A stretch of DNA of 64,000 nt from an uncultured delta proteobacterium (GCA_963754515.1 CAVWGC010000001.1:456-64455), one strand, 5' to 3'. Positions 8,748 through 54,912 are shown, numbered from the stretch's first letter. The notes: generated by a model from the sequence alone, not told the origin. Numbers and translations: made by a program.

Positions 8748-8863
8748 CTGCGCAAAAAGCCCGGATGCTGCGTTGCGCTTCATCCTTCGTCGTTGCGGCG
8801 TACGCCAGAGTACGCCTCACTCCTCAGGATTCGCGCGCCTTGCCTGCGGAGCTTTTTGCGCAG
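8748..8863 (+). repeat. Repeat family R1, short form (116 bp core)
   Basis: 13-bp perfect terminal inverted repeats CTGCGCAAAAAGC / GCTTTTTGCGCAG. Homologous to 16718-16852, 45519-45653 and 51817-51931(-). A conserved tail extends to the hpt stop at 8904-8906. Confidence 0.85.
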
Positions 8864-16717: not shown

Positions 16718-16852
16718 CTGCGTAAAAAGCCCGGATGCCGCGTTGCGCTGCATCCTTCGTCGTTGCGGCGTACGCCCAATGTACGCCTCACTTGGATAGG
16801 GACATGACTCTGTCATGTCCCCATGCGCCTTGCCTGCGAACTTTTTACGCAG
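16718..16852 (+). repeat. Repeat family R1, long form (135 bp core)
   Basis: CTGCGTAAAAAGC...CTTTTTACGCAG ends. Carries an extra internal palindrome GGGACATGAC-TCT-GTCATGTCCC (16799-16821). The conserved tail reaches the ogt stop at 16892-16894. Confidence 0.85.
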
Positions 16853-33070: not shown

Positions 33071-33090
33071 TTCGGGGAGTCAATATTGCA

Positions 33091-33119
33091 TTGACAGACA
33101 AGTCCGATCTCTTTATACT
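33091..33119 (+). promoter_or_regulatory. Strong sigma70-like promoter for the CoA-transferase-GNAT gene
   Basis: TTGACA at 33091-33096, 17-nt spacer, TATACT at 33114-33119. Leaves a leader of about 110 nt. Confidence 0.55.
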
Positions 33120-33234
33120 TCCTGCCAATATCAAATATGAAGTTATTAAATAAAACCTTGATTAACCGTAAGAATCATTTAGATTTGCTAAAGGATGCAG
33201 CAGACAGTTCATAAGCCCAGATATTCAGATTGAT

Positions 33235-35124
33235 ATGAAGTTAGAAGCGAATTCACTTGAATACTGGAAAAAGAAATATCCCGAGAAGTTCACGTCGGAA
33301 GATATTATCTTCAGCCATATTCATCGAGGCAATACGATATTTATCGGTTCAGCTTGCGCGGAGCCGCAATATCTTGTTCAGGGGCTGATCCGCTATGTCG
33401 AGTCAAAGCCTCATGCCTTTTTCGATGCGGAAATCATTCACGTGAGGACTCTCGGCGTAGCCCCCTACACCGAAAAAAAATTCAAACGCAACTTTCGACA
33501 CAATTCTTTCTTTATCGGTGATACAACAAGGGATGCCATCAACACAGGGCAGGCAGATTACACGCCTATCCTCCTGTCCCAGTTACCCTCTTTATTTCAA
33601 AGGGGCCTCGTCCATATTGATGTGGCCCTTATTCAAACGTCCCTGCCTGACAGCCATGGCCATTTGAGCCTTGGCGTCAGTCTGGACATCGTGAAAGCTG
33701 CTGTTGAAAACGCCTCTCATGTTGTTGCCCAGGTTAATGACTGTATGCCTCGCGTCCATGGAGATTCTTTCATTTACATCGATGACATCGATTTCCTATT
33801 ACCTTATAATGAACCTCTTCTGGAATATAGCCCGGAGTCAGAGATGGAAATCACCCGTAAGATTGGGGATAATATTGCTCGTCTTGTTCAGGATGGCGAT
33901 ACGATCCAAGTTGGATATGGCGCCGTTACCAATGCCATCCTTGAGAACCTTTCCGGGAAAAAGCATCTTGGTGTGCATACTGAGCTCTTCAGTGACGGTA
34001 TTGTCGAACTCATGAAAAAAGGAGTTATCGACAATACAAAGAAAACCATCAATCGTGGGAAATCTGTGGCGACGTTCTGTATGGGGCATAAAAACACATA
34101 CGAATTTATCCATGACAATCCGGACATAGAATTCAGGACGATCGACTATACCAATAACCCTCTGGTGATTGCCCAGCATGAAAATATGGTGGCCATCAAC
34201 AGCGCTCTGGAAATTGACCTTTCCGGACAGGCTACGGCAGAATCTATCGGGAAAGTTTTTTACAGCGGGATCGGCGGACAAGCCGATTTTATGCGTGGGG
34301 CTTTCTTATCCAGAAATGGCAAGGCCATTCTTGCCCTTCCGTCAACGGCAGTGGGCGATAGTATCTCAAGGATCACGCCGGCACTTAAAGAGGGGGCTGG
34401 GACGACATTGATTCGTGGTGACATCCATTATGTTGTCACTGAGTATGGTATTGCCTATATTCACGGGAAAAGCATCCGTGAACGGGCAATGAACTTGATT
34501 GCCATCGCTCACCCCAAATTCAGACAATGGCTCGTTGAAGAAGCAAAGAAGTCAGGTCTGATCTATCAGGATCAGGCGTTCATCCCGGGGGAGAAAGGAA
34601 GGTACCCCGAGAAGCTGGAGTCTTACAAAACCACCAAAGCGGGTTTTAAGATATTCTTCCGACCCATTAAAATAAGTGATGAGCCGCTTTTAAAGGATTT
34701 TGTTTATTCTCTTTCTGATAACAGTTTGTACCGACGGTTTATTTCCATTCGTAAAGATATGCCCCATGAACGGCTTCAGGAGTTTGTCGTTATCGATTAT
34801 ACAAAAGAAATGGCGATTGTTGCTACTGTTGGCGATGAGGAGAATCAGGAAATCATAGGAGTAGGCAGATATTTTATTGACGAAAGCAAGCATTTCGCGG
34901 AAGTGGCTTTTGCTGTAAGAGATGAGTACCATAAGAAAGGTATTGGAACGGAGTTGCTTGTATATTTGACTTACCTTGCAAAGAGACAGGGGCTCCTGGG
35001 ATTTACTGCAGAGGTCTTAGCAGACAACACGCCAATGCTGCACGTGTTTGAAAATGGGGGGTTCGATATCGCAAAGCACAATATCGCCGGCATCTATGAA
35101 ATGACGATGGCCTTCAAGGAATAA
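33235..35124 (+). CDS. Acetyl-CoA hydrolase/transferase-family domain fused to a C-terminal GNAT acetyltransferase domain
   Basis: The N-terminal 430 aa resemble 4-hydroxybutyrate/acetyl-CoA transferases (GSACAEPQ, GVHTELFSDG, GIGGQADF). The C-terminal about 190 aa are a Pat-like GNAT (FRPIKISDEPLL...YRRF...HKKGIGTEL). Confidence 0.8.
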   Translation: MKLEANSLEYWKKKYPEKFTSEDIIFSHIHRGNTIFIGSACAEPQYLVQGLIRYVESKPHAFFDAEIIHVRTLGVAPYTEKKFKRNFRHNSFFIGDTTRDAINTGQADYTPILLSQLPSLFQRGLVHIDVALIQTSLPDSHGHLSLGVSLDIVKAAVENASHVVAQVNDCMPRVHGDSFIYIDDIDFLLPYNEPLLEYSPESEMEITRKIGDNIARLVQDGDTIQVGYGAVTNAILENLSGKKHLGVHTELFSDGIVELMKKGVIDNTKKTINRGKSVATFCMGHKNTYEFIHDNPDIEFRTIDYTNNPLVIAQHENMVAINSALEIDLSGQATAESIGKVFYSGIGGQADFMRGAFLSRNGKAILALPSTAVGDSISRITPALKEGAGTTLIRGDIHYVVTEYGIAYIHGKSIRERAMNLIAIAHPKFRQWLVEEAKKSGLIYQDQAFIPGEKGRYPEKLESYKTTKAGFKIFFRPIKISDEPLLKDFVYSLSDNSLYRRFISIRKDMPHERLQEFVVIDYTKEMAIVATVGDEENQEIIGVGRYFIDESKHFAEVAFAVRDEYHKKGIGTELLVYLTYLAKRQGLLGFTAEVLADNTPMLHVFENGGFDIAKHNIAGIYEMTMAFKE

Positions 35125-35264
35125 AAAGGGGCAAATTTAACGAATAACACCTTTTTTCTTGAAATGGAAATCTGTACCCTGTACAAGAAAGTGCGTTAAA
35201 AAAGCGGATCGAATTGACAAACATCGTGAAGCTCAAAAATTAAGAGGATCAAAGAGGAGGCATT

Positions 35265-35975
35265 ATGGAGACACCCCATTCACATGAAACGATGATGGAG
35301 CAGATTATCTCATCTCAGGTAAAAAAATGGCAGACGAATATGAAAAAGAAATATAAAAAGCCTATCCGTCCGGTCATTACCATTTCCAGACTGCCGGGCA
35401 GTGGTGCTGATACGCTGGCAAAACAACTGTCGACAGATTTGCATATAGACTTTTTTAACAATGAAATCGTAGGAGCCGTAGCCAAGAGCGCCAATGTGAG
35501 TGAGGCCGTGATCGCCACGCTTGATGAACAGGATCGTTCTATTCTGGATGACTGGATCGGTGCGCTTGAAAAAAAATATCATCTATGGCCTGATGAATAT
35601 TTACACCATCTGACAAAAGTTGTCGGCGCCATTGCCGCACATGGCCATGCCGTCATCGTCGGGAGGGGAGTTGGTTACATCCTGCCCAGTGAAGTCTGTC
35701 TCCGTCTGCTCATTGTTGCGCCCATGGATGTGCGCGTCCGGAATGTCATGCATGCCTATGGTGCGACCTATGAAGAGGCGGAAAAAAGGATCATTAAAAC
35801 TGAGAAGGATCGTAAGGCCTTTATTAAGAAATACTTTAATGCCGAACTGACTGATCCTGTTAATTATGACCTGACGCTCAATACAGCCCATTACACCGTT
35901 GAGGCGGCCGTGAATATCGTCAAGGAAGCCTTCAACGGTCGACCGTGGTATGATTATTCGATCAGAAAATCTTAA
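35265..35975 (+). CDS. Cytidylate kinase-like family protein
   Basis: ITISRLPGSGADTLAKQL P-loop-like motif with the overall pattern of the CMK-like family. Strong RBS AGAGGAGG. Confidence 0.65.
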   Translation: METPHSHETMMEQIISSQVKKWQTNMKKKYKKPIRPVITISRLPGSGADTLAKQLSTDLHIDFFNNEIVGAVAKSANVSEAVIATLDEQDRSILDDWIGALEKKYHLWPDEYLHHLTKVVGAIAAHGHAVIVGRGVGYILPSEVCLRLLIVAPMDVRVRNVMHAYGATYEEAEKRIIKTEKDRKAFIKKYFNAELTDPVNYDLTLNTAHYTVEAAVNIVKEAFNGRPWYDYSIRKS

Positions 35976-36102
35976 AGCAAATAAGTGTTAAAATGCGAAA
36001 AAGAAAGTTCTCTTCAATAATCAATTTATGAAGGGGCTCTTTCCTGGGGGCTCACCTTCGGAAACGCCCCCACCATCGCGCAGGAAAGGATACGGAACAC
36101 CC

Positions 36103-38247
36103 ATGAGCAACCTGAATGCCATTTTCGCACCGGAGTCGGTGGCCATCATCGGCGCCTCGACCACGCCGGGAAAGGTGGGGCACGATATCTTCGCCAATAT
36201 CCTGAAGGGGGGCTTCACGGGCACCCTCTATCCCGTCAACCCCAAGTCCAAGTCCGTCCTCAGCGTACGGGCCTTCCCCACCATCCGGGACGTCCCCGAC
36301 ACGGTGGATCTGGCCATGATCGTCCTGCCCCCGCAGGAGACCCTGAAGGCCGTCGAGGCGTCCGTGGCACACGGCGTCAAAGGCCTTGTCATCGTCTCCG
36401 CCGGTTTCCGGGAAGTGGGCGGCGCGGGCCTGGAGATCGAGAACCGTATCGTCGCCATTTGCCGGGAGGCGGGTATCCGCCTTGTCGGGCCCAACTGCCT
36501 GGGAGTCATCAACCCCATGCCCGCCGTCCGCCTCAACGCAAGCTTCTCCTCCCGCATGCCCGCCACCGGGAACATCTCCTTCATCTCGCAGAGCGGCGCG
36601 CTCTGTACTGCCGTCCTCGACTTCGCCGCCGACCGGGACTTCGGTTTCTCCAAGTTCATCTCCATCGGCAACAAGGCTGATGTGGACGAGTTGGACCTCC
36701 TCCGCTATTTCTACGAGGATCCGGACACGGCGGTGATCATGCTCTACATGGAGGAGCTCCGTCGGGGCGCGGAGTTCATTGAGGTCGTCAAGGAAATCAC
36801 CTCTGGAAGCCGCCCCACCCCGGTGCTCATCATCAAGTCCGGCCGCACGCGGGCGGGGGCCCAGGCCGCGGCCTCCCACACGGGGGCCCTGGCGGGTACC
36901 GAGGCGGTCTACGAGGCCATCTTCAAGCAGTCCGGGGTAATCCGCGCCGACACCGTGGATGAGCTCTTCGACTTTGCCAACGTCTTCGCCTACAAGCAGG
37001 AGAGCGCCCTCGGCAAGATGCGGCGCAAGCTCCCCGACGGGAACCGGGTGGCTATCGTCACGAACGCCGGCGGCCCGGGGATCCTCGCCACGGACATGAC
37101 CGTCTCATCGGATCTGCGGCTCGCTCAGTTTCAGAAAGAGACCATCGAGGACTTGGCCCAGCACCTGCCGCAGACGGCCAACATCCACAACCCCGTGGAC
37201 ATCATCGGTGACGCCACCCAGGAACGCTATGAGAGCGCCCTGCGGACGGTCATCAACGATCCGGGCGTGGACGGTGCTCTGGTCATTCTCACCCCCCAGT
37301 CCATGACCAACGCCCTAGGCACAGCGGAAGCCATCGTGCGTGTCGCCCGCCGGACCCAAAAGCCGATCCTCTGCTGCTTCATGGGGATCATCGACGTCTC
37401 CCCGGGCGTTAAATTCCTCCAGGAGCACGGGTACCCCGTATACAAGTTCCCTGAAAACACCGCAAAAGCGTTCAGTGCCCTCTATAAATATTCCCACTGG
37501 CTCAATCGGGAGCAACTGCCGGCGCTCACTCTCGCCCATGACCGGGCACAGGCCACCGAGCTAATCCAGCAGTGCCTTGCGGAGGGCCGGACCTATCTCG
37601 GGGAACTGGACGGCCTGGAGTTGCTGCGCTGCTATGGCTTCCAGACCCTTCCGACGCAACTGGCCGTAAGCGAGGGGGTGGCGGCGGACATCGCCGAGTC
37701 CATGGGCTTCCCGGTAGTGATGAAGATCGTCTCCGATCAGATCATCCATAAATCCGACGCGGGCGGCGTGGTGGTGGGGCTGCAGAACCGGGAAGAGACC
37801 GAAGCGGCCTACCACCGGATCATCGCCAACGCACGCCAGTACGACCCCCAGGCCTTCATCCGGGGGGTCCTGGTCCAGAAGATGGCCCCCAAAGGGGAAG
37901 AGGTAATCATCGGCATGAACCGCTACGGGGTCGGCCCGCTGCTGATGTTTGGCCTCGGGGGGATCTTCGTGGAGGTCTTCCGCGACGTGGTTTTCCGCCT
38001 GGCCCCCATCGACCGGAACGAGGCCCACGGCATGATCCGGGAGATCCGGGGCTGGCGGCTGCTCCAGGGCTTCCGGGGTCGTCCCGAGGCGGATACGGAC
38101 ACCTTGGAACGGCTGATGGTGTGCCTCTCCGACCTGGTGACGAACCACCCGGAGATCAATGAAATGGACATCAACCCGCTGCTGGTGCACCCCCAGGGCC
38201 AAGGAGCAACCGTGGCGGATTGTCGCATCATCCTGAGCCCCGCCTGA
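36103..38247 (+). CDS. ADP-forming acetyl/acyl-CoA synthetase (fused alpha-beta, CoA-binding plus ATP-grasp)
   Basis: SVAIIGASTTPGKVG, GPNCLGVINP, ISQSGALC, AASHTGALAG, and a C-terminal ATP-grasp (FPVVMKIVS...HKSDAGGV). Start set at MSNLNAIF. Confidence 0.85.
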   Translation: MSNLNAIFAPESVAIIGASTTPGKVGHDIFANILKGGFTGTLYPVNPKSKSVLSVRAFPTIRDVPDTVDLAMIVLPPQETLKAVEASVAHGVKGLVIVSAGFREVGGAGLEIENRIVAICREAGIRLVGPNCLGVINPMPAVRLNASFSSRMPATGNISFISQSGALCTAVLDFAADRDFGFSKFISIGNKADVDELDLLRYFYEDPDTAVIMLYMEELRRGAEFIEVVKEITSGSRPTPVLIIKSGRTRAGAQAAASHTGALAGTEAVYEAIFKQSGVIRADTVDELFDFANVFAYKQESALGKMRRKLPDGNRVAIVTNAGGPGILATDMTVSSDLRLAQFQKETIEDLAQHLPQTANIHNPVDIIGDATQERYESALRTVINDPGVDGALVILTPQSMTNALGTAEAIVRVARRTQKPILCCFMGIIDVSPGVKFLQEHGYPVYKFPENTAKAFSALYKYSHWLNREQLPALTLAHDRAQATELIQQCLAEGRTYLGELDGLELLRCYGFQTLPTQLAVSEGVAADIAESMGFPVVMKIVSDQIIHKSDAGGVVVGLQNREETEAAYHRIIANARQYDPQAFIRGVLVQKMAPKGEEVIIGMNRYGVGPLLMFGLGGIFVEVFRDVVFRLAPIDRNEAHGMIREIRGWRLLQGFRGRPEADTDTLERLMVCLSDLVTNHPEINEMDINPLLVHPQGQGATVADCRIILSPA

Positions 38248-45457: not shown

Positions 45458-45518
45458 GAATAACACCTCTCTCTGGATTCTGCTCACTTGGACCGGATCG
45501 CTCTTTCGGGCATGACGG

Positions 45519-45653
45519 CTTCGTAGAAAGTCCGGATGCTGCGTGGCGCTGCATCCTTCGTCATTGCGGCGTACGTAAAAGTACGCCTCATTTGGATGGG
45601 GACACGACTCTGTCATGTCCCCATGCGCCTTGCCTGCGGAACTTTTTACGCAG
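45519..45653 (+). repeat. Repeat family R1, long form
   Basis: CTTCGTAGAAAGT...CTTTTTACGCAG, with an internal palindrome as in 16718-16852. Confidence 0.85.
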
Positions 45654-45775
45654 CCGTCGAAATAGGCTCATTTTTCGATTTTTTGCGAGTCCGTCAATCA
45701 TGCGGCAATATAGGAGAGTACATCGGGAATGTCAATACCATTCCTGGAACTTGAGCGTGCGTACGGGCTTTGATC

Positions 45776-47770
45776 TCATGCCTTTCCTGGTTCGGGATGA
45801 TTGTACAGACGCATCGCGTCTGCAATCTTGTCGGGTTCACCGACGACAAACAGGATATCTCCTTCCGAAAAGACCGTTTCAGCCGGGGGGTTGGAAATGA
45901 TCTCATTCTTCCGGCGCACGGCCAACACGGACACACCCATCTTTTTTCGCATCTCCGTCTCGGCCAGCGTTTTCCCGGTAAGCAGCGAGCCTTCGGCAAT
46001 GCGAAAGGATTTTATTTCCACGTCCGGCAGGCATAATTCAATATCCATACAGGTTGAGGCCTCCCTCGAAAGGCTTCGCAGCATCTCGTAGCGCTCCGAA
46101 CGGATTTCCGCCACAAACCGCTCAATCTCCTCCTTCGGCATGAGATATTTTGCCAGCACACGGCTGAAGATTTCCACCGACGTTTCAAATTCTTCCGGAA
46201 TGACTTCATCGGCGCCCAGCTCGCACAGGGGCGCCATTTCCTGAATGAACCGCGTGCGGACTACAAGATAAATTTTCGAATTCAATCTTCGGGCCAATTC
46301 CGTAATCCGTCGTGTTGCCGCCGGATCATTGATGACCACCACCAGGGCCTTGGCGGTTTTAATGTTCAAATGCTGAAGAACCGCCTCCTGGGTGGCGTCG
46401 CCGTAATAGATCGGCGTCCCTTTGGCACGCTCCTCCCTCACCACCGTCGGGTTCATTTCGAGGATGACGTAAGGAATGCCGCTGAATTTCGCGGCGCGGG
46501 CCAGATTCCGCCCGTTGAGGCCAAATCCCACAATAACGAGATGGTTTTTTGCATGCAACCGCTCCGTATGGGGCGCCGGATAGGATCCCCGCTTGATGTT
46601 TCTGGGCAGGGGCAATTTTTGGACCAGCGCTGCAATCCGGGGGGACGCCGCCAGGGCAAAGGGCGTCGCCATCATCGTCAACACGGATACCGCCAGGAAT
46701 CCCTGATGCATAGCACCCGCAAGCAGGCCATGCTGAAGGGCCTTCTCCGACAGGATAAAGGAAAATTCACCCACCTGGCCGAGGGAAACGGACACGAGAA
46801 CGGCCGTGCGCAAGGAAAGGCCCAGGAGGATCGCGATCACAAGGACAATCAGGGCTTTGAAGATGAATACGCCCAGGGCCAGCAACGCCAGATAAAGAGG
46901 GTGCTCCAGAAGAAACCCCATATTGAGCAGCATCCCGATGGATACGAAAAAGAAGCTCGTGAAGACGTCGCGGAAGGGCAGGATGTTGCCGAGCGCCTGA
47001 TGGCTGTATTCGGATTCGGAGATGATCAGTCCGGCCATAAAGGCGCCCAGGGCCAGGGAGAGTCCCGCCAGGTGGGTCAGCCAGGCTACGGCCAGACAGA
47101 TGGCGATTACGCTTAGCAGGAACAATTCACGGCTTTTTGTACGGGCGATGCTGTAGAATACGTGCGGCACGATCCATTTCGCACTGACGATCACCAGCGC
47201 AACGATCGCGACGACCTTCGCCAGAAAAAGCAGCAGCGAATCCATATCGCCGCCCTTCCCCTCTCCGGCCAGCAGCGGAACAAGCAGCATCATGGGAACG
47301 ATGATGATGTCCTGAAAGATCAGGATGCCGAGGGCCGTGTTGCCCTGCGGGGTTTCGACCTCGGCACGGTCCTGGAGGATTTTCATGACGATGGCGGTGC
47401 TGCTCAGGGAAACCAGAAAGCCGATCAGCACCGATTCCCCGATGCCCAAGCCGAAATATCGCGAGACGCCAAAGGCGGCGGCGACCGTGATGACGACCTG
47501 AAGCGAACCGCCGATCAAGACGGATCTCCTGATCTGCAGCAGGCTGCGGAAGGAAAATTCAAGGCCGATCGTAAAAAGCAGCAGCACCACGCCCACATCG
47601 GCCAGGATTTTGACCGCGTCAATATCCCGGACCAGTCCCAGCCCGTAGGGACCGCTGATCAGGCCGGTCGCCAGAAATCCCACGATAATGGGAACCCGTA
47701 TCAGGTGGCACACATACAGAACAAAGGCCGAAAGGCCAACGATAATGAGGATATCATTCAACAGGGGCAT
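45776..47770 (-). CDS. CPA2 cation:proton antiporter with TrkA-N and TrkA-C domains
   Basis: VPIIVGFLATGLISGP, 12-13 TM segments, LVIVGFGLNGRNLA (RCK-N), and a C-terminal RCK-C (GKTLAETEMRKKMGVSVLAVRR). Confidence 0.85.
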   Translation of the reverse strand: MPLLNDILIIVGLSAFVLYVCHLIRVPIIVGFLATGLISGPYGLGLVRDIDAVKILADVGVVLLLFTIGLEFSFRSLLQIRRSVLIGGSLQVVITVAAAFGVSRYFGLGIGESVLIGFLVSLSSTAIVMKILQDRAEVETPQGNTALGILIFQDIIIVPMMLLVPLLAGEGKGGDMDSLLLFLAKVVAIVALVIVSAKWIVPHVFYSIARTKSRELFLLSVIAICLAVAWLTHLAGLSLALGAFMAGLIISESEYSHQALGNILPFRDVFTSFFFVSIGMLLNMGFLLEHPLYLALLALGVFIFKALIVLVIAILLGLSLRTAVLVSVSLGQVGEFSFILSEKALQHGLLAGAMHQGFLAVSVLTMMATPFALAASPRIAALVQKLPLPRNIKRGSYPAPHTERLHAKNHLVIVGFGLNGRNLARAAKFSGIPYVILEMNPTVVREERAKGTPIYYGDATQEAVLQHLNIKTAKALVVVINDPAATRRITELARRLNSKIYLVVRTRFIQEMAPLCELGADEVIPEEFETSVEIFSRVLAKYLMPKEEIERFVAEIRSERYEMLRSLSREASTCMDIELCLPDVEIKSFRIAEGSLLTGKTLAETEMRKKMGVSVLAVRRKNEIISNPPAETVFSEGDILFVVGEPDKIADAMRLYNHPEPGKA

Positions 47771-48518: not shown

Positions 48519-48604
48519 GAAGGAATTGTCATTGCCGCATTTTGGCAACAGGAATGCATTGATCACTTTATTTTATTGATTTTATTGATGAAAGGAGGAT
48601 GTTT

Positions 48605-50371
48605 ATGACAACCACAGTCGTTATTATCATCGGTTTTATCATTTATGTAGGTCTCTACTTCACGTACGGTAAAAAGATCGAGCGGGACGTCGTCCGGGCG
48701 TCGGACGATATCAAGACGCCCGCCCATCGCCTTTACGACGGCGTGGACTACATTCCGGCCCATAAGGCGGTCCTCTTCGGACATCACTTTTCGTCCATCG
48801 CCGGCGCGGGGCCGCTCGTCGGGCCGGCACTGGCCATTTGTTGGGGCTGGCTTCCGGGCCTGTTGTGGGTCTGGTTCGGCAATGTCCTGATCGGCTCCGT
48901 GCACGACTATCTGGCCCTGATGGCTTCGGTGCGTTACGACGGCAAATCCGTCCAGTTCGTGGCGTCGGATCTGATCTCCAAAAGGACGGGCAGGGCCTTC
49001 TACTGGCTCGTCTTTTTCCTGCTGATCCTGGTCGTGGCGGCCTTTGGCAATATCATCGGCATGATGTTCGTCAACACGCCGTCAATCGCCGGAGCTTCCA
49101 TTTACATGACTTTCGCCGGGCTCATCCTGGGGGTCCTGATCTACCGGGTCAAGATGAACCTGCCGGCAGCCACCGTCATCGGCATCGTCATGATGGCTAT
49201 CGCCATCTGGGCAGGCACGCAATTTCCCGTGCCGGCCAGCTACGAGGTGTGGATGGTGGTTCTGTTCCTCTACATCATCATCGCCGCGGCCATACCCGTG
49301 AATGTGCTCTTGCAGCCGCGGGATTACATGAATTCCTTCCTGCTGTATTTCGGCATCGCCATCGGGTTCATCGCCGCCATCTTCACGTTCCGGGGCTTTG
49401 AGGTTCCCATGGTAACCTCGTTTTCGCCGATCCTGATGGGAGGAAAACCGACGCCCTTCTGGCCCGCCATCCTGCTGGTCATCGCCTGCGGCTCGCTGTC
49501 GGGTTTCCACTCACTCGTCGGATCCGGCACCACTTCTAAACAGCTCTCCAAAGAGAGTGACGGCCTGTTCGTGGGATACGGCGCCATGTTTACGGAAGGC
49601 TTCCTCTCAACGTTGATTATCTGCGCCATCGGCGGCTTCGGCTATACGGCCATCCAGAACGCCCATGCCGCGCAGGCCGCAGCGGCTCTGGCCAAGGACG
49701 CCACGGCGGCCATGGTACCGTTAGCCCTGACTGCGGACAACTGGGGGGAACTCTACACGAAGACCACGGCGACCCTGAAGCTCCCGGCGCCGACCATGAT
49801 CGTCCAGTGCTTCTCCGACATGGTCGCCGCGAGTTTCCTGTCCTTCCTGCCCGTGAAGATCGTCAAGGTCATCGCGGGGCTCTGGATTTCGGCCTTCGCC
49901 CTGACAACGCTCGATACGACAAACCGGCTGGCCCGCTACTGCCTCGTGGAGATGCTTCAGCCGCTGAAAAACACGGCGGAGGGTCTTTACAAGGCCCTGA
50001 CGTTCCGCTGGACCGCCTCGCTTATTCCTGCGGCCATCGGCATCTATCTGGCCTGGAGCAAACAGTTCACGATCCTCTGGCCGTCTTTCAGCGCCGCCAA
50101 CCAACTCATCGCCGCCATCGCACTGATGACGGGCGCAGCCTATGTCTCCAAGAAGATGCAGTCCAAGTTTGCCATCATGGCCGTCATTCCGGCCTGGCTC
50201 CTCTGGATCACCGTCACGGCGGCCATCATCTGGTTCATGGCCGTCGTCATGCCGGGCGCCATTGCCAAAAGCCCCGGTCAGGGCTGGACGGTCCAGATCA
50301 TCATGGGGATCATGCTGATCCTGAACATCCTGTTTATTGTTGACTTTACGAAGTCGAGGAAACAGCCGTAA
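48605..50371 (+). CDS. cstA: Carbon starvation protein A (peptide/pyruvate transporter family)
   Basis: VLFGHHFSSIAGAGPLVGPALA signature and about 16 TM segments. The ATG at 48605 is 6 nt after GGAGG. The track start at 48599 abuts the RBS. Confidence 0.9.
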   Translation: MTTTVVIIIGFIIYVGLYFTYGKKIERDVVRASDDIKTPAHRLYDGVDYIPAHKAVLFGHHFSSIAGAGPLVGPALAICWGWLPGLLWVWFGNVLIGSVHDYLALMASVRYDGKSVQFVASDLISKRTGRAFYWLVFFLLILVVAAFGNIIGMMFVNTPSIAGASIYMTFAGLILGVLIYRVKMNLPAATVIGIVMMAIAIWAGTQFPVPASYEVWMVVLFLYIIIAAAIPVNVLLQPRDYMNSFLLYFGIAIGFIAAIFTFRGFEVPMVTSFSPILMGGKPTPFWPAILLVIACGSLSGFHSLVGSGTTSKQLSKESDGLFVGYGAMFTEGFLSTLIICAIGGFGYTAIQNAHAAQAAAALAKDATAAMVPLALTADNWGELYTKTTATLKLPAPTMIVQCFSDMVAASFLSFLPVKIVKVIAGLWISAFALTTLDTTNRLARYCLVEMLQPLKNTAEGLYKALTFRWTASLIPAAIGIYLAWSKQFTILWPSFSAANQLIAAIALMTGAAYVSKKMQSKFAIMAVIPAWLLWITVTAAIIWFMAVVMPGAIAKSPGQGWTVQIIMGIMLILNILFIVDFTKSRKQP

Positions 50372-50397
50372 GACATTGCCGTTAAACCATTCAACCG

Positions 50398-50437
50398 GAT
50401 GGGACGGCGCAGGTTTCCCAACCTGCGCCGTCCCATC
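50398..50437 (+). terminator. 18-bp perfect stem-loop after cstA (terminator-like, no U-tract)
   Basis: GATGGGACGGCGCAGGTT-tccc-AACCTGCGCCGTCCCATC. Confidence 0.45.
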
Positions 50438-50463
50438 CACTCCGATATTCACGAAAAGGCCTT

Positions 50464-50498
50464 TGAAAAATGGCCGCGCCGCGTGCGAGCCATTTTTC
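50464..50498. repeat. Miniature R3-like hairpin
   Basis: TGAAAAATGGC-N14-GCCATTTTTC uses the same terminal 10-mers as the R3 elements. Confidence 0.55.
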
Positions 50499-50814
50499 TG
50501 CGGTTATGCAGAACTCTCGCGGACTCTTCATGGACTCTAAATGGATGCGCTTCTGCCGCCGGATTGCCGCCGATATGGGCACAACCCAGCGTCAGCGCGC
50601 GGCGGCCCTCACCTGCGTGGAAGAGCGGGAGCTCGAAAATATCTTTGCGCTGCTGCTGCTGGGGTCTTTTGTCGGCCTGCCGGCGCCGCCGACCTTTCTG
50701 GCCGTGGAACTTCTCCCCTTTATGCAAAAAGAACTAAAGCTCTTGAGCCAGCGGGCGGAGGACGCCCCGGATATGCTGGCCGTGCTCATGGGATCCTTGG
50801 GGGTTGACGGATGA
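50470..50814 (+). CDS. Small hydrophobic hypothetical protein, translationally coupled to the ArsA-like ATPase (start uncertain: 50470, 50506, 50530 or 50545)
   Basis: The frame ends GVDG-TGA, overlapping the arsA-like ATG (ATGA). Hydrophobic core IFALLLLGSFVGLPAPPTFLAVELLPF. The first ATG lies inside the hairpin at 50464-50498, so a later start is likelier. Confidence 0.4.
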   Translation: MAAPRASHFSAVMQNSRGLFMDSKWMRFCRRIAADMGTTQRQRAAALTCVEERELENIFALLLLGSFVGLPAPPTFLAVELLPFMQKELKLLSQRAEDAPDMLAVLMGSLGVDG

Positions 50815-51776
50815 GGATCTTGTTTTATACCGGCAAGGGCGGCGTCGGAAAATCCACCATGGCCGCGGCGGCGGCATGGCAGCTCTCAAAGAAACACCGG
50901 GTCCTGATTGTCTCCCTGGATCCGGCTCATAACCTGGGTGACCTGTTCGGAGTCAGCCTGAAAAACCGCCGCAAGCGCTTCTCCGATACCCTCTATCTCG
51001 AAGAAGTCGACCTGAAACGCCTGGCCCGGGCCTATCTGGAACGGGAAACGACCGTTCTTGAGGAATCCTATCCCTATCTGAGCGCCATGAATCTTGACCG
51101 TTATTTCTCGGTGCTCAAGTATTCGCCCGGCATCGAGGAATACGCGCTTTTGACCAGCATCGAGAAGACGATCCGCGAAGACCTGGATTTTGATTTCATC
51201 ATCTTCGACACGCCGCCGACGGGGCTCACGCTGCGGTTTCTGGCGCTGCCCCAGGTCACCGTCACGTGGATCGAGCGGCTGACGGCTATCCGGCGCCAGA
51301 TTCTGGAAAAACGCTACACGATCCAGAAGATCCGCGGAACCCCCGGAAACGAAAGCGCGGAGACGGGCGTTCGCCTCAACTTCAGCGAGGACGACGACGA
51401 CATGCTCAGGCGGCTCAAAACGCTGCACGAGAATTACCGACGGCTGAACGGGACTCTCCAGGGGGCGGATTGCGGGATCGTTCTCGTTTTCAATCCCGAC
51501 CTGCTTTCAATACGGGAATCGGAGCGGCTCATCACGGGGCTCAAAGAGCTGAAACTTCCATTGAGGCTCCTGATCCAGAACAAGGTCTCCACGGAAAACG
51601 CCGATACGGCGGAGCGGACGGCCCTGCATCTCCGAACGAAGGTCAGTCAAGACATCCCTTTTCAGCAGGTCAGATTGCAAAGCGCTCTGGCCGACGACCG
51701 GGGCGACGATTTCTTTTCCCTGCCGGAAGATATGACGAAACATTTGATTTCAACAGCGGGTAACGATCATGTTTGA
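50811..51776 (+). CDS. ArsA/Get3-family P-loop ATPase, single-domain (321 aa)
   Basis: MRILFYTGKGGVGKSTMAAA (deviant Walker A), SLDPAHNLGDLFG, and IIFDTPPTGLTLRFL. Confidence 0.85.
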   Translation: MRILFYTGKGGVGKSTMAAAAAWQLSKKHRVLIVSLDPAHNLGDLFGVSLKNRRKRFSDTLYLEEVDLKRLARAYLERETTVLEESYPYLSAMNLDRYFSVLKYSPGIEEYALLTSIEKTIREDLDFDFIIFDTPPTGLTLRFLALPQVTVTWIERLTAIRRQILEKRYTIQKIRGTPGNESAETGVRLNFSEDDDDMLRRLKTLHENYRRLNGTLQGADCGIVLVFNPDLLSIRESERLITGLKELKLPLRLLIQNKVSTENADTAERTALHLRTKVSQDIPFQQVRLQSALADDRGDDFFSLPEDMTKHLISTAGNDHV

Positions 51777-51816
51777 TGAACCAGCAAAAAGTCGAGCAAT
51801 GAACCGGACACGACGG

Positions 51817-51931
51817 CTTTGTAAAAAGCTCCGCAGGCAAGGCGCGCAAATCATGAGGAGTGAAGCGTACTTTGGCGTACGCCGCAATGACGAAGGATGC
51901 AGCGCAACGCGGCATCCGGACTTTTTACGAG
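51817..51931 (-). repeat. Repeat family R1, short form, inverted
   Basis: Reverse complement of the 8748-8863 type. It lies between the ArsA-like gene and the next ORF. Confidence 0.85.
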
Positions 51932-51937
51932 GGCGTC

Positions 51938-52609
51938 ATGTTTGAATACGAAGCGATTGCCCGACAGCCTATCTTTTATCTCTTCATCGCCTTCTCGGCC
52001 CTGTTGAGTTTCGGCTACTTCTGGGGAAAGCGCACCAACGAGCGTCTGTTCCGCTCTGCCTTTGAAGAACTCGTTTCTGTGTTCAAACCCGTGGACCAGA
52101 CCTTTACGAACATCGGCGGCCTCATCGGCTATCACGCGAGCCTGGTGATGCCGAAGAAAGGTGCCGTCGAGGCGGTCAACGCCACGATCACCTTTCTGCC
52201 GAGACACTCCTGGCTCTGGATGCCCGTCTCCAAGCTCATCCGGAAATACGACCGCCTCTTTATCACGGTGCAACTGCGCCAGACGCCCATCGCAGAAGGT
52301 CATCTCATCGAGGCAGCCTACGCCCGCTTCCGGGGACCGAAAATCACGAACGCCGCGAACCTCCAACATGAACAAATCGCCTGGGGAAACCGGAATTTCA
52401 TCCTCTATTACGGCAGCAACCGCATCCGGGATCGGTTGCGGTCCTTTGTCGCGGCTAATCCTGATCCGGGAACCCTGCGGCACATTGCCATCGTCCCGGA
52501 ACAGAACAAATGCTTCATCTTCATGATCCCGTTGAAAGGCCAGGTCGCCCGGAGCCTGTCACCCGTTTACCAGTTGATTTCGACACTCATGAAACAGGAG
52601 GACAAATAA
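51938..52609 (+). CDS. Signal-anchored hypothetical protein with motif order resembling eukaryotic CCDC47/DUF1682 (unverified)
   Basis: The ATG at 51938 follows GAGGG. TM IFYLFIAFSALLSFG, then YFWGKRTNERL, ATITFLPRHSWL, YDRLFITVQL, RHIAIVPEQ and KCFIFMIPL. The upstream part of track ORF 51860.. is repeat DNA. Confidence 0.55.
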   Translation: MFEYEAIARQPIFYLFIAFSALLSFGYFWGKRTNERLFRSAFEELVSVFKPVDQTFTNIGGLIGYHASLVMPKKGAVEAVNATITFLPRHSWLWMPVSKLIRKYDRLFITVQLRQTPIAEGHLIEAAYARFRGPKITNAANLQHEQIAWGNRNFILYYGSNRIRDRLRSFVAANPDPGTLRHIAIVPEQNKCFIFMIPLKGQVARSLSPVYQLISTLMKQEDK

Positions 52610-52691: not shown

Positions 52692-53210
52692 ATGGCGAAG
52701 CGAGAGAAATTGGACGTTTTTGATTTTGCAATTAACGCGGAAAAGAACGGCATGGACTTCTACATGAAGGCGGCGAAAAAATTTGCCGACAAGGACTTGA
52801 AAAACCTGTTTGTCAAGCTGGCTCGGGAAGAGTCCGTTCATCTTCAGATTTTCATGGAATTCAAAGCCAAGGCGGAAGGCAAGGGGATCGACCAGACCCT
52901 GCGGAATCCGGAAATAGACGAATACATCGAATCGATTGTCCAGGAAGGGCTTTTCCCCAGAAGTGAAACGGTGAACAAACGGCTGGATCAGGTCGAGACC
53001 GTGGCGCAGGCCGCCGCCATCGCCATGGCGGCGGAAAAGAACGCGATCCTGCTGTATTCCGAACTGGCCAGGCTCGCCAAGGACAAGGACCAGAAAAAGT
53101 TTTTCGAAAAGATCACCAAAGAGGAAAAATCCCACATTGTGATGGTGCGCAACCTGCGGGCGGATCATGACCCCGCGTACGCGGCGCTGGCTTTCGGGAA
53201 ATTCTTTTAG
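52692..53210 (+). CDS. Ferritin-like/rubrerythrin-family diiron protein
   Basis: Two E-x-x-H half-sites (AREESVHLQ and KEEKSHIV) in a four-helix pattern. RBS AAGGAGG. Confidence 0.7.
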   Translation: MAKREKLDVFDFAINAEKNGMDFYMKAAKKFADKDLKNLFVKLAREESVHLQIFMEFKAKAEGKGIDQTLRNPEIDEYIESIVQEGLFPRSETVNKRLDQVETVAQAAAIAMAAEKNAILLYSELARLAKDKDQKKFFEKITKEEKSHIVMVRNLRADHDPAYAALAFGKFF

Positions 53211-53218
53211 CTCTACGC

Positions 53219-53491
53219 TCAGACGAACTCGATGGCCAGATCGGGAAACTCCCTCTGAAACTCTGCCGTTACATCCCGGACGATTGTGGCGATGATGGTT
53301 TCTGCGATGGCGGCGCAGGTGACGCAGTGGGGAAGATGGCGGTAAGCATCGGTGAAGATGTAGAGCCGCTTGTCTTTCTCACTGTAGCGGACCCGCCGGA
53401 CAAGGCCGAGTTGTGCGACGGGAAGGCCGCTTTCGGGGTCTTTGATCTTCTCTAAAACAGCGTCGATTTTCCGGATCATTTCCGGGGACAT
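53219..53491 (-). CDS. DUF59/MIP18-like small protein
   Basis: LEKIKDPESGLPVAQLGLVRRVRY resembles the DUF59 core. Start at MSPEMI after GGGAGGGGAAGG. Confidence 0.5.
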   Translation of the reverse strand: MSPEMIRKIDAVLEKIKDPESGLPVAQLGLVRRVRYSEKDKRLYIFTDAYRHLPHCVTCAAIAETIIATIVRDVTAEFQREFPDLAIEFV

Positions 53492-53719
53492 TTCCTTCCC
53501 CTCCCTGTTATCATCATGTTCAGATTGCATCACAACCCCCACAAATATTCCGGACCAAATTTCCGGAGGAAAGATCATAGCAGCCGAATGTACTACCTCG
53601 CAGCACGCTGCGGGGAATTGATCCCGGAGCGATTAAACATTTTCCGATATTTCCGTTTGAGCCGGCGATGTCTTTCTTCAAGGATCAATCGTGGATTTGT
53701 CTGTGGGTTTGTTATGATT

Positions 53720-54912
53720 TTACCCGTCTCTTTTCCATCCCATTTGCAGGACGCCGGCCGTCATGACGATGATGGTCAGAACGATGACGCTGACGGCATA
53801 GACGATAAAGTCCCTGGAACCTTCAATGCCTGCTGCCAGGAGAAGAGTAGCGAGAACTGCCGTCGCTAAACCGCGGGGAAGCATATAAAAGAAAGCGTTC
53901 TTCTCCTCTTTTCCTTTCCCGGAACGTCGGATCATGAATTCTACACTCAGGTACCTCATGAGAATGATGATGAACACAAAGGCAATGCTCATGGCAATAT
54001 TGCCAGGCGCAAGGGCGTCCGCGGTGATCATCATACCCATGTAAACGAAAAAAATGTGCGGATAAAAAAGGTCACCTCGCCATGAAAGAATTTGATCGTT
54101 TCGTCAATCAATTTACACTGAGATGATCCCTGTAAAAACGAGATATCTCCACAGTTGCCGAGAATGACGCCGAAGATGAGGACGGCCACAGGCCCGCTTC
54201 CCCCTAAGAAATCGACTGCTGCAACAACGATCAACATTACGCCCAAGGTGATCATATATGAATATTTTCGTTCACCCATGAAGTTCAATATCTTATACTA
54301 TGATAATCCGAAGGCCGTTCCGGCAACAATGCCTATGGAGAAAGAGCTGGCAATTGCGTGCAAAGGCTTGTCGATACCGATGTTCTCAAGTTTAACGAAT
54401 TCAATCAAAGAGATAGCCAAAACGACAGCCAGAACGTCACTCATGGTGGATTCGATATAAATGACGGTTTTTGTCTCATCCTTCAACGACATTTTGGCAA
54501 GAACGGGAAGGACAATGGCCGCGCTCGTGCAGCCAAGCACGGTAGCCATCATGAGACTGGGAAGAAGTTCCCAGCCATGAACATAGATGAGAAAGGCTGT
54601 AATGGCGCTTGTCGTTGAAATAAAAGAAATGACGACAAGAATGGTGGCATTCCCGAATTCCTGCAGCAGCATCCTGATTTTGAGGTCCATGCCCCCTTCA
54701 AACAGGATGACAATGAGGGCAAAGGTTCCGAAATATTCAGCAAAGTCGGTCAAATGTCGATGATCGACCACCTTGAATACAGGACCGAGAAGAATGCCGA
54801 TCCCAAGAAGCACCAGAACATCGGGGATCTTGATCTTATCATACACAAGATCACCCAGAAATCCGACAATGATAATACTGCCGACTATGAAAAACAGCAG
54901 CGGCGCGTCCAT
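53720..54912 (-). pseudogene. CPA1-type Na+/H+ exchanger, interrupted by an in-frame TAG and a frameshift in an A7/T7 run
   Basis: Three consecutive ORFs (54298..54912, 54031..54288 and 53720..54040) read as one antiporter. TAG at 54298-54300 (GLS*YKILNF). The frame changes at AAAAAAA 54048-54054 (FFIRTFF|FVYMGMMITAD). Confidence 0.8.

Follow-up and report, generated by a model that had tools for sequence, protein, structure and literature searches.

CCDC47 (Pfam PF07946, formerly DUF1682) belongs, as a PAT-complex subunit, to the ER multipass translocon and is regarded as a eukaryotic invention of that machinery; in multipass-translocon structures, it touches the ribosome and Sec61 through a C-terminal coiled coil and latch helices. 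We know of no case in which Get3 and CCDC47 work together in eukaryotes. Archaeal Get3 binds tail-anchored proteins, and some functional Get3 homologues lack a CxxC motif (PMC6593721), while in mycobacteria TtfA acts as an accessory factor of the trehalose monomycolate transporter MmpL3 (PMC6593404). Closest in gene content to the locus described here is the operon cstA-cstX-arsA homologue-cstY, proposed from sequence analysis by Castillo and Saier (2010, Int J Microbiol; PMC2963123), who already reported the coevolution of the four proteins and proposed that the ATPase energises CstA. In that study, CstY was found in just five archaea, Thermococcus kodakarensis among them, and was termed a non-essential auxiliary protein, and no connection with CCDC47 was drawn (PMC2963123). 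Neither such a connection, nor a prokaryotic relative of CCDC47, nor an experimental study of any part of the system was found in the literature searched.

The window analysed here, a stretch of 64,000 nucleotides from an uncultured delta proteobacterium that appears to be of a Syntrophales type within the Desulfobacterota, carries a bacterial example of this cassette, with the following features:

48599..50371, plus strand: cstA, first gene of the cassette, encoding a CstA-family (carbon starvation protein A) multipass membrane transporter of 590 aa
50397..50438, plus strand: stem-loop in the cstA-cstX spacer, with perfect 19-bp arms that are reverse complements and no U tract after it
50530..50814, plus strand: cstX, encoding 94 aa with the very strongly conserved core ELENIFALLLLGSFVGLPAPPTFLAVELLPFM, the equivalent of Pfam DUF7990
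50811..51776, plus strand: gene for a 321-aa, single-domain ArsA/Get3-family P-loop ATPase of a CstA-associated clade
51811..51940, no strand assigned: copy of the dispersed intergenic repeat R1, between the ATPase gene and cstY
51938..52609, plus strand: cstY, encoding 223 aa, with one N-terminal anchor (approximately residues 11-30) followed by a predicted cytoplasmic alpha/beta domain
53219..53578, minus strand: gene for a DUF59/FeS_assembly_P-like small protein (PF01883, 3.4e-4, below the cut-off)

An earlier note on this DNA had described the last three genes of the cassette as an ATPase locus, and their coordinates, the ATGA overlap, the ATPase motifs and the 223-aa length of the third ORF were all confirmed. 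What it missed was the upstream cstA, the presence of which recasts the locus as a transporter operon of four genes in the order cstA-cstX-ATPase-cstY. The earlier note knew of no described bacterial locus of this kind, but the locus type is already present in PMC2963123, though without the CCDC47 link. The product of cstA matches Pfam PF02554 (CstA) at 2.7e-126 over profile positions 3-560 of 560 and belongs, as a multipass secondary transporter, to the pyruvate/peptide transporter family. Its gene is followed after 158 nt by cstX on the same strand, and the stop codon of cstX overlaps the start codon of the ATPase gene (ATGA, 50811-50814), which indicates translational coupling.

Gene order and gene sizes are those of the operon proposed in 2010, including the CstA permease encoded in the same operon. 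The published CstX has around 90 aa and one hydrophobic segment, compared to 94 aa and one segment (residues 38-60) in the window; the ArsA homologue is a single-domain protein of around 300-330 aa, compared to 321 aa and one PF02374 domain; and CstY has around 210 aa and one membrane segment, compared to 223 aa and one N-terminal helix. The equivalence to the published CstY rests on a Pyrococcus abyssi protein reached by profile search: the family profile of the window CstY retrieved the database protein P0165 at 1.3e-32, and the profile of the P0165 subfamily in turn retrieved the P. abyssi protein at 8e-73, which itself sits in a cstA cassette. In contrast to the five archaea of the 2010 study, CstY appears here as widespread in bacteria and with a predicted fold, with matches in 173 stretches of species-representative genomes, mostly labelled as Syntrophales or other Desulfobacterota, plus Caldisericum.

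The gene order was kept in all 80 species-representative loci, wherever the contig was long enough, with cstA located 5' of cstX in 74 of them and the remaining 6 ending at a contig edge. In this co-occurrence check, suggested in the earlier note, cstY adjoined the ATPase gene in every one of the 80. The same cassette was found in members with only 20-35% identity, namely in loci L081 and L085-87, a P. abyssi-type locus (L089), Caldisericum exile, and a Crenarchaeota genome. CstX, the ATPase, and CstY thus accompany CstA as a fixed set in bacteria and archaea. In one divergent member, cstY lies beside cstA with no ATPase on that short contig, which makes CstA the most constant partner. In C. 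exile, a LytS/LytTR two-component system is encoded directly upstream of the cassette. The LytS/LytTR-type system BtsS/BtsR of E. coli controls the CstA-family pyruvate transporter BtsT, and the parallel fits a regulated nutrient-uptake operon.

The longest reading of the first ORF of the earlier note spans 50470-50814 (114 aa at most), but the ATG at 50530, giving 94 aa, was taken as the start of cstX because its homologues have 91-94 aa. Twelve positions are invariant among 34 bacterial and archaeal homologues (E31, E34, N37, F39, L41, F47, G49, P53, P54, P63, E68, and D81), and the hydropathy maximum is 1.75 in a 19-residue window. The label DUF7990 (PF25952) comes from precomputed annotations of the equivalent genes in L081, L085-87, and the P. 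abyssi-type, C. exile, and Crenarchaeota loci; no mention of this family was found in the literature searched. A weak NCBIfam match to a cory-CC-star protein (26 bits vs a cut-off of 80) was also obtained for the window CstX, and the Pfam scan gave no Asterix-like match.

Regarding the intergenic elements, the stem-loop between cstA and cstX has a predicted RNA fold of -43.3 kcal/mol (z = -7.3 vs shuffles). It was rejected as an intrinsic terminator, as it lacks a U tract and the terminator scan made no call; our guesses would be a REP-like element or one that acts in processing or stability. The R1 repeat, pointed out in the earlier note, is real and has three further copies in the window, each on the minus strand and with 90-96% identity (8754-8857, 16721-16776, and 45511-45659). 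In many relatives, the ATPase match stops at or just before the start of cstY (e.g., at 1948/1947 in locus L002), and a gap of similar size (approximately 165 bp) was seen only in the closest relative, L001, so the R1 copy looks like a lineage-specific insertion. In many Syntrophales loci, too, tblastn detected the DUF59-like gene downstream and on the opposite strand, and a 95-aa relative of its product (28% identity, E 5e-6) is encoded within the L089 cassette, between the ATPase and cstY. The gene is thus a neighbour with a loose association to the cassette, and its product may be a fifth component.

The ATPase of the window carries the motifs GKGGVGKST, DPAHNLGD, and DTPPTG, and throughout the clade, whose members have 305-324 aa, the motifs GKGGVGKST, DPAHNLGD, YSPGIEEYA, and DTPPTG-L/I/A are found. 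It matches the Pfam family ArsA_ATPase (PF02374) at 1e-51 and TIGR00345 with 164 bits (cut-off, 135), and its best solved relative is the Get3 of Methanocaldococcus jannaschii (3ug6, 7e-31); ArsA proteins and eukaryotic Get3 come next. By its family-model scores, PDB bit scores, and motifs, the ATPase falls in a distinct single-domain ArsA/Get3 clade, separate from bona fide ArsA as well as from canonical Get3, with intact nucleotide-binding motifs, without the metalloid-binding cysteines of ArsA and without the CxxC zinc site of Get3.

The Pfam match, and the name "arsenical pump-driving ATPase" given to several of the closely related solved proteins, could suggest a classical ArsA that energises an arsenite/antimonite resistance transporter. 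However, the protein consists of one domain of 321 aa instead of the two tandem domains of ArsA (approximately 580 aa), scores 91 bits against the ArsA equivalog TIGR04291 (cut-off, 650), and has one cysteine (most relatives, 0-1), with no metalloid-binding triad. Moreover, no arsenic-resistance family was detected among the ORFs scanned from approximately 43.6 to 56.9 kb, the transporter belongs to an unrelated family, and ars genes were never observed to share an operon with carbon starvation genes (PMC2963123). Domain number, TIGR04291 score, cysteines, and gene context effectively refute this explanation, to which we give next to no credit, in agreement with the earlier note, which had argued against an ArsA role from the lack of arsenic genes nearby. 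The ArsA-ArsB pair is nevertheless similar in another respect: there, too, a secondary transporter is encoded alongside an ATPase from this family that may couple ATP to transport, and such coupling is the model proposed for CstA in PMC2963123.

With Get3/TRC40, the ATPase shares the P-loop family, the single domain, the deviant Walker A motif, and the DPAHN switch I. Downstream of switch II, a segment of similar length can be aligned to the M. jannaschii Get3 insert, but its conserved sequence is basic and amphipathic (IRrxILeKRyTI) rather than methionine-rich. Switch II itself reads DTPPTG-L instead of DTAPTGH, and the CxxC used by animal and fungal Get3 for zinc-mediated dimerisation is absent. 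No Get1/Get2-type receptor is encoded at the locus either, the constant partners being CstA, CstX, and CstY.

The start of cstY at 51938 agrees with the starts and lengths of its homologues, a family of 431 relatives (247 representatives of 50%-identity clusters), all of them unnamed and without a Pfam domain. Ten residues lie ahead of the membrane helix, and the last helix spans residues 203-216, with the protein ending at 223. By the positive-inside rule, the globular domain is probably cytoplasmic, with acidic residues on the N-terminal side of the helix and K31, R32, R36, and R39 after it. One database protein, P0265, joins the C-terminus of the ATPase and CstY in a single chain; this fusion, if real, would argue for the opposite topology, and would also count against a function of CstY as part of an accessory module of CstA.

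The similarity of this protein to CCDC47 had been proposed in the earlier note from the order of motifs. The CstY motifs (YFWGKRTNERL, ATITFLPRHSWL, YDRLFITVQL, RHIAIVPEQ, and KCFIFMIPL) are all present, the CCDC47 motifs given there do occur in the human protein (PDB 6w6l, chain 7), and hhalign pairs the two sets in the proposed order. Against PF07946, the window CstY scored 18.2 bits (E 1.5e-3), below the gathering threshold of 27.7 bits, over CstY residues 15-60 and profile positions 7-49 of 326. The best E-values were 4.9e-5 among 33 close family members and 6.2e-5 among 101 divergent ones, with none seen reaching the threshold; this sub-threshold match recurred in 44 of the 101 divergent members, compared to 5 for the next family. 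Aligned with a CCDC47 set of the human and 18 fungal sequences, the 101 CstY sequences gave a probability of 59.6% (E 8.9e-5, 95 columns), and a relaxed alignment gave 39.6% over 185 columns with the motif order kept, in both cases with a shallow CCDC47 alignment (template Neff approximately 2.8), in which the added sequences are all at least 63% identical to the fungal query. Against human CCDC47 alone, the probability was 8%. On the whole, the sequence signal appears weak but consistent. When two CstY alignments were used for profile searches of the PDB, neither CCDC47 nor TtfA was retrieved, and no sequence similarity between TtfA and CstY was detectable; both links rest on fold rather than on direct sequence searching.

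The fold comparison was carried out with Foldseek against 350,542 PDB chains, using as queries two predicted models, the AF2 model of the window CstY (pLDDT 87.2, pTM 0.81) and that of the P. abyssi CstY, built from a different alignment (pLDDT 93.5). With the window model, the top three matches were 7tm3_4 (2.3e-9, TMq 0.66), 9i78_4 (1.5e-7, 0.67), and 6w6l_7 (5.5e-4, 0.56), these three being all the distinct CCDC47 sequences that the PDB contains. CCDC47 again ranked first with the archaeal model (E 6e-7, TM approximately 0.65). The next related match was TtfA (6t84), at 2.7e-3 and 3.5e-3 for the window and archaeal models, respectively, with a TM of 0.51 normalised to TtfA. The predicted fold of the CstY globular domain thus resembles that of the cytosolic domain of CCDC47 as well as that of mycobacterial TtfA.

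CstY and CCDC47 also share one membrane helix followed by a cytosolic alpha/beta domain (TM 0.56-0.67, normalised to CstY), a juxtamembrane Y..G..N + FT.(I/V)G stretch, and a strand with L..(K/P)R. The differences are considerable, as CstY has 223 aa vs 483 aa, lacks the signal peptide and the N-terminal acidic luminal domain, and lacks the long C-terminal coiled coil, human CCDC47 running approximately 120 residues further as a charged coil; in the genome, it is accompanied by a transporter and an ATPase rather than by Asterix or Sec61. The claim of CCDC47 likeness held for the fold and the recurrent PF07946 match, and did not hold for a Pfam score at threshold or for the full domain architecture. 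None of the three outcomes that, according to the earlier note, would have refuted its reading was observed.

A resemblance of fold alone, in which CstY, TtfA, and CCDC47 share a domain by convergence or by ancestry too remote for function to be implied, is possible but doubtful in our view. The identity of 8-12% in the structural alignments would be in line with it, as would a sub-threshold Pfam match of approximately 45 residues that includes the membrane helix, the PDB profile searches, and the drop in hhalign probability between the alignment and human CCDC47 alone. However, three distinct CCDC47 sequences lead among all the PDB chains for the window model, CCDC47 leads again for an archaeal model from a different alignment, and PF07946 is the sole recurrent family. 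Furthermore, the alignment continues beyond the membrane helix as far as the first strands, the order of the motifs survives in the relaxed alignment, and the topology is the same.

The reading that we prefer, with a probability of roughly 0.5, is that CstX, the ATPase, and CstY constitute an ATPase accessory module of CstA, with ATP energising or gating uptake. In its favour are the conserved gene order, the overlapping start and stop codons, the coevolution reported in 2010, the matches of two independent CstY models to CCDC47 and TtfA, the place of the ATPase within the family but outside ArsA proper, and the two-component system of C. exile. CstY would sit against CstA in the membrane, where the conserved hydrophobic segment of CstX would probably lie too; CstY, probably together with CstX, would dock a dimer of the ATPase on the cytoplasmic face of CstA, and CstA would in this way be coupled to the binding and hydrolysis of ATP, which would either supply energy for uptake or gate it. 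ArsA acts in this manner on the secondary carrier ArsB. TtfA, too, is a membrane-anchored accessory protein of a transporter, the role proposed here for CstY, and its fold is matched by both CstY models, although MmpL3 belongs to a family different from CstA. We know of no ATPase partner of TtfA. To our knowledge, E. coli CstA and BtsT function without partners of this kind, which counts against such a module.

Three further observations do not favour the accessory module: the best solved relative of the ATPase is the tail-anchor-binding archaeal Get3, the insert after switch II sits where Get3 has its client-binding helices, and a biogenesis factor is among the only characterised relatives of the CstY fold. 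Such features would be explained about equally well by a role as chaperone or in assembly.

A less likely alternative is a role of the locus in membrane-protein biogenesis. In such a device, the Get3-like ATPase would be a holder, CstY a CCDC47-like factor at the insertion site, and CstX an adaptor or client, together helping to insert, fold, or assemble CstA or membrane proteins generally. The first rank of CCDC47 for two independent CstY models, the same layout of helix and domain, and the common Y..G..N...FT.(I/V)G stretch speak for it, and so do the closeness of the ATPase to M. jannaschii Get3 with a switch II insert absent from ArsA, a CstX hydrophobic core that hardly varies between bacteria and archaea, in the way a specific binding segment would be expected to behave, and the nature of CstA as a large multipass protein. 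In contrast, CstY ends after one helix at residue 223, without the coiled coil and latch helices of CCDC47; the ATPase insert is not methionine-rich and there is no CxxC; and no SecY, YidC, or Get1-like gene was found in the cassette in the 80 related loci, L081, L085-87, L089, C. exile, or the Crenarchaeota genome. E. coli CstA, as far as we know, needs no comparable factor, and we consider this role unlikely. The strict tie to one transporter speaks against a general pathway, and a general tail-anchor pathway was judged unlikely on the same strict cstA linkage. Distinctly unlikely, in our estimate, is the proposal that CstY is a true prokaryotic homologue of CCDC47, perhaps its evolutionary source, and that with the Get3-type ATPase and CstX it makes up a machine that inserts or assembles a multipass membrane protein.

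In conclusion, CstY represents a conserved, unnamed prokaryotic family with a CCDC47-like predicted fold and topology, its gene sharing an operon with those for a Get3/ArsA-type ATPase and a multipass transporter. Its predicted fold provides a structural lead for the 2010 proposal of ArsA-like ATPases driving CstA transporters and joins mycobacterial TtfA to the same fold class as CstY and CCDC47. If CstY were only a docking subunit for a transporter ATPase, this would still be a useful annotation for several hundred "hypothetical proteins". T. kodakarensis is genetically tractable, and the cassette is a simple system for asking what a CCDC47-like fold does. Finally, CstY offers a possible evolutionary root for CCDC47, and if it were a true homologue acting in such a machine, relatives of two eukaryotic ER biogenesis factors would form one conserved operon of archaea and bacteria.

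All three ORFs claimed in the earlier note were found, on the plus strand, together with the ATGA overlap (50811–50814) between the ORF1 stop and the ATPase start. That three-ORF view was incomplete, as the gene of a key partner, a CstA protein encoded upstream, had been overlooked. The locus comprises:

48599–50371, plus strand: cstA, 590 aa (Pfam CstA, 2.7e-126), directly upstream of cstX
50397–50438: stem-loop with a perfect 19-bp stem, located between cstA and cstX (−43 kcal/mol, z = −7.3)
50530 (ATG start), plus strand: ORF1/cstX, 94 aa, set by homologue lengths; longest ORF from 50470, 114 aa
50811–51776, plus strand: single-domain ATPase, 321 aa (Pfam ArsA_ATPase, 1e-51)
51938–52609, plus strand: ORF3/cstY, 223 aa, start set by homologues

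The ATG at 50530 fits as the cstX start because homologues measure 91–94 aa (70 loci). For cstY, an alternative start at GTG 51860 would lengthen the ORF; homologues instead start with MFE(Y/H)E and span 219–232 aa. The stem-loop has no U tract, was not called by the terminator scan, and has no second copy in the window.

Operons of this type (cstA, cstX, an ArsA homologue, and cstY) were published in 2010 by Castillo and Saier from genome context and phylogenetic trees (PMC2963123), so the locus is not an undescribed one, as had been supposed. In that work, cstX encodes ~90 aa with one hydrophobic segment, the ArsA homologue is a single-domain protein of ~300–330 aa, and cstY, recorded in five archaea only, encodes ~210 aa with one membrane segment. 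Coevolution of the four proteins was reported, and the ArsA homologue was proposed to energise CstA with CstX as a linker, CstY being rated a probable non-essential auxiliary protein (PMC2963123). ORF1 corresponds to CstX, and its equivalents in other loci belong to the precomputed Pfam family DUF7990. ORF3 corresponds to CstY; a divergent CstY subfamily profile matched "hypothetical proteins" of Pyrococcus abyssi, P. yayanosii, Thermococcus, and Palaeococcus, and the P. abyssi protein sits in a cstA cassette. Neither another use of the names CstX and CstY in this sense nor experimental work on the cstA-cstX-ATPase-cstY system was found in the literature searched. The window locus adds a new bacterial member to this known, uncharacterised operon type.

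A word-indexed search recovered 431 cstY relatives, all "hypothetical protein" or unnamed and all devoid of Pfam domain annotation, and an exhaustive profile search yielded 247 cluster representatives (50% identity), with few exceptions 200–240 aa long. A cstY relative was encoded in 173 stretches (one genome per species), and synteny was examined in the best 80 of them, labelled mostly Syntrophales, Syntrophaceae, Desulfobacterales, Desulfohalobiaceae, or delta proteobacterium. Among these best 80 of 173, the pairing of ORF3 with an ArsA-like gene recurred throughout, with the ATPase directly upstream of cstY (80/80); cstX preceded the ATPase in 77 loci and cstA came ahead of that in 74, every locus without cstX or cstA lying on a contig that ends too early. 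The same cassette surrounds cstY members only 20–35% identical to the window protein in the related loci L081 and L085–87, in the Pyrococcus abyssi-type locus, in Caldisericum exile, and in a Crenarchaeota genome, there with cstA divergently oriented. The fixed four-gene set spans two domains of life. One divergent cstY, on a short contig, adjoins cstA with no ATPase, which makes CstA the most constant partner. In C. exile (L090 1–1780, AP012051.1), the cassette is immediately preceded by genes for a histidine kinase of LytS type and a LytTR response regulator. This pair resembles E. coli BtsS/BtsR, a LytS/LytTR-like system controlling the CstA-family transporter BtsT, and fits a regulated nutrient-uptake operon.

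Other elements of the window lie in and around the cassette:

8754–8857, 16721–16776, 45511–45659, and 51811–51940: dispersed intergenic repeat R1, ~100–150 bp, at least four copies, 90–96% identity
43583–45244 and 45776–47770, minus strand: two neighbouring Kef-type cation/H+ antiporter genes (Na_H_Exchanger + TrkA), upstream of the cassette
52692–53210, 3' of cstY: rubrerythrin/ferritin-like protein, also weakly like encapsulin ferritin-like cargo
53219–53578, minus strand: DUF59/FeS_assembly_P-like small protein, found close to the cassette in many loci of Syntrophales
53720–54912, minus strand: Na+/H+ exchanger gene split into three ORFs (204, 85, and 106 aa)

The last R1 copy, opposite in strand to the other three, lies in the ATPase–cstY spacer. 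As the ATPase match stops at or just short of the cstY start in many relatives, and a spacer of comparable size was found only in L001, the closest relative, this copy looks like a lineage-specific insertion. The DUF59/FeS_assembly_P-like protein may be a fifth, optional component; a relative lies within the Pyrococcus abyssi-type cassette (L089 4711–4998; 28% identity, E 5e-6), between ATPase and cstY. The rubrerythrin/ferritin-like gene after cstY is kept only in the Syntrophales subset of loci. In L035, L039, L054, L059, L076, and L079, cstA–cstX spacing is enlarged by ~0.6–2.3 kb, and the extra sequence of L076 and L079 partly codes a ferritin/rubrerythrin-like ORF. The broken exchanger, with Pfam profile positions 5–193 in its first piece and 271–366 in its last, probably reflects either a frameshifted pseudogene or an error in sequencing, and sits where G+C dips to ~0.48. 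Together with the two Kef-type genes, it makes three exchanger/antiporter genes within 12 kb. Farther upstream, G+C is 0.45–0.47 over 32001–36000 and 0.63 over 36001–38000, a jump that may mark a boundary of foreign or mobile DNA.

The ATPase passed the GET3/ArsA/TRC40 family model (NCBIfam TIGR00345, 164 bits, cut-off 135) and failed those of NosAFP, BagA, and BagB. Its nearest solved relative is M. jannaschii Get3 (3ug6, 7e-31), followed by Chlamydomonas ArsA1, bacterial ArsA (E. coli ArsA among them, 5.5e-24), M. thermautotrophicus Get3, and, last, the Get3 of eukaryotes. When aligned with M. jannaschii Get3, the ATPase matches through the region after switch II, the site of the client-binding insert of Get3, whereas its alignments with ArsA end near residue 150. 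The 83 cassette ATPases compared conserve GKGGVGKST, DPAHNLGD, YSPGIEEYA, and DTPPTG-L/I/A, the last in place of the DTAPTGH of Get3 and ArsA. In the insert they share a basic, amphipathic helix (IRrxILeKRyTI) without the methionine richness of Get3, and most members have 0–1 cysteine, hence neither the metalloid site of ArsA nor the CxxC of Get3. As argued in the earlier note, the protein is not a classical ArsA, scoring 91 bits against the 650 of the ArsA equivalog, and such a function is effectively excluded. The cassette ATPase is a separate clade, in agreement with clusters 14–18 of Castillo and Saier.

Conservation of CstX is unusually high, with 12 positions invariant from Syntrophales to Pyrococcus in and around the core ELEN(I/V)FAL...G.F.G.P.PP......LLP.M..E. 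Its hydrophobic stretch, interrupted by the invariant PxPP, peaks at a hydropathy of 1.75 over 19 residues, the level of a membrane segment. CstX might pack on CstA as a membrane hairpin or, alternatively, be a helix bound by the ATPase.

For CstY, a likeness to the eukaryotic ER protein CCDC47 had been proposed from the order of family motifs. PF07946 (CCDC47) was the sole Pfam match of ORF3, at 18.2 bits (E 1.5e-3; residues 15–60 against profile positions up to 49 of 326); it fell short of the 27.7-bit family threshold, which is why CstY is not filed there. Of 33 close members, 31 show this sub-threshold match, as do 44 of the 101 divergent ones (5 of 101 for the runner-up family), and CstY profile searches of PDB sequences gave no relevant match. 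With hhalign, 101 CstY sequences reached 8% probability against human CCDC47 alone and 59.6% (E 8.9e-5, 95 columns) against human plus 18 fungal CCDC47, pairing YFWGKRTN with NYIIGKNKN, FTNIG with FTLVG, and TITFLPRHSWLW with LIQLRFLKRQDLL. A relaxed run (185 columns, 39.6%) reproduced the motif order proposed earlier, but with low column confidence where LRHIAIV met IESVHFS and KCFIFM-IPL met RTLLFTFNVP. The sequence evidence for the suggested likeness is weak but consistent.

Predicted structure bore out the likeness in two CstY models. Modelled with AlphaFold2 (mean pLDDT 87.2, pTM 0.81), the window protein has a long helix 11–49 (membrane segment plus extension), an alpha/beta domain, and a terminal helix. 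Among 350,542 PDB chains, Foldseek ranked 7tm3_4 first (E 2.3e-9, query-normalised TM 0.66), then 9i78_4 (1.5e-7, 0.67) and 6w6l_7 (5.5e-4, 0.56). A probe of human CCDC47 residues 132–483, run against PDB sequences, identified all three chains as CCDC47, matching 6w6l_7 over its full length with zero mismatches, and they are the sole three distinct CCDC47 sequences found in PDB. Fourth came TtfA (6t84, E 2.7e-3, TM 0.51 normalised to TtfA), a mycobacterial protein that is an essential accessory of the transporter MmpL3 (PMC6593404). The second model, P. abyssi CstY from a separate alignment (pLDDT 93.5, pTM 0.87), recovered 7tm3_4 first (5.6e-7, TM 0.63), TtfA second, and 6w6l_7 third, with no credible match in PDB beyond CCDC47 and TtfA. 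As modelled, the structural evidence for a CCDC47-like CstY is strong. With acidic residues before the helix and K31, R32, R36, and R39 after it, the positive-inside rule places the globular domain, by prediction, in the cytoplasm, in agreement with the cytosolic domain of CCDC47 (PMC7505659). In the database protein P0265 (323 aa), a single frame carries the last third of a cassette ATPase (residues 5–81 of P0265) and a full CstY (132–316). A genuine fusion would have a bearing on this topology; the alternative is an error of assembly or gene calling where the stop and start codons overlap. CstY differs from CCDC47 in having neither the luminal acidic domain nor the ~120-residue C-terminal coiled coil. 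We regard true homology of the two as probable; no such link was found in the literature searched.

The closeness of the ATPase to archaeal Get3 and the predicted CstY fold would both suit a dedicated aid to the assembly or insertion of CstA, working in a Get3/CCDC47-like mode. However, the missing coiled coil, the non-hydrophobic ATPase insert, and a cassette with no Sec, YidC, or Get1 genes make this main rival unlikely. The set combines a transporter, an intact P-loop ArsA/Get3-family ATPase, the small CstX with its conserved hydrophobic core, and a membrane-anchored CstY of predicted CCDC47/TtfA fold. By analogy, we favour, at a probability of about 0.5, a system in which CstY and CstX would tether the ATPase dimer at the cytoplasmic face of CstA, and the ATPase cycle would be coupled to CstA uptake through this tether. 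The ATPase would act on CstA as ArsA couples its ATP cycle to ArsB, and CstY would serve CstA as TtfA, a membrane-anchored accessory factor, serves MmpL3. The CCDC47-like fold predicted for CstY may reflect shared ancestry and a shared mechanism.
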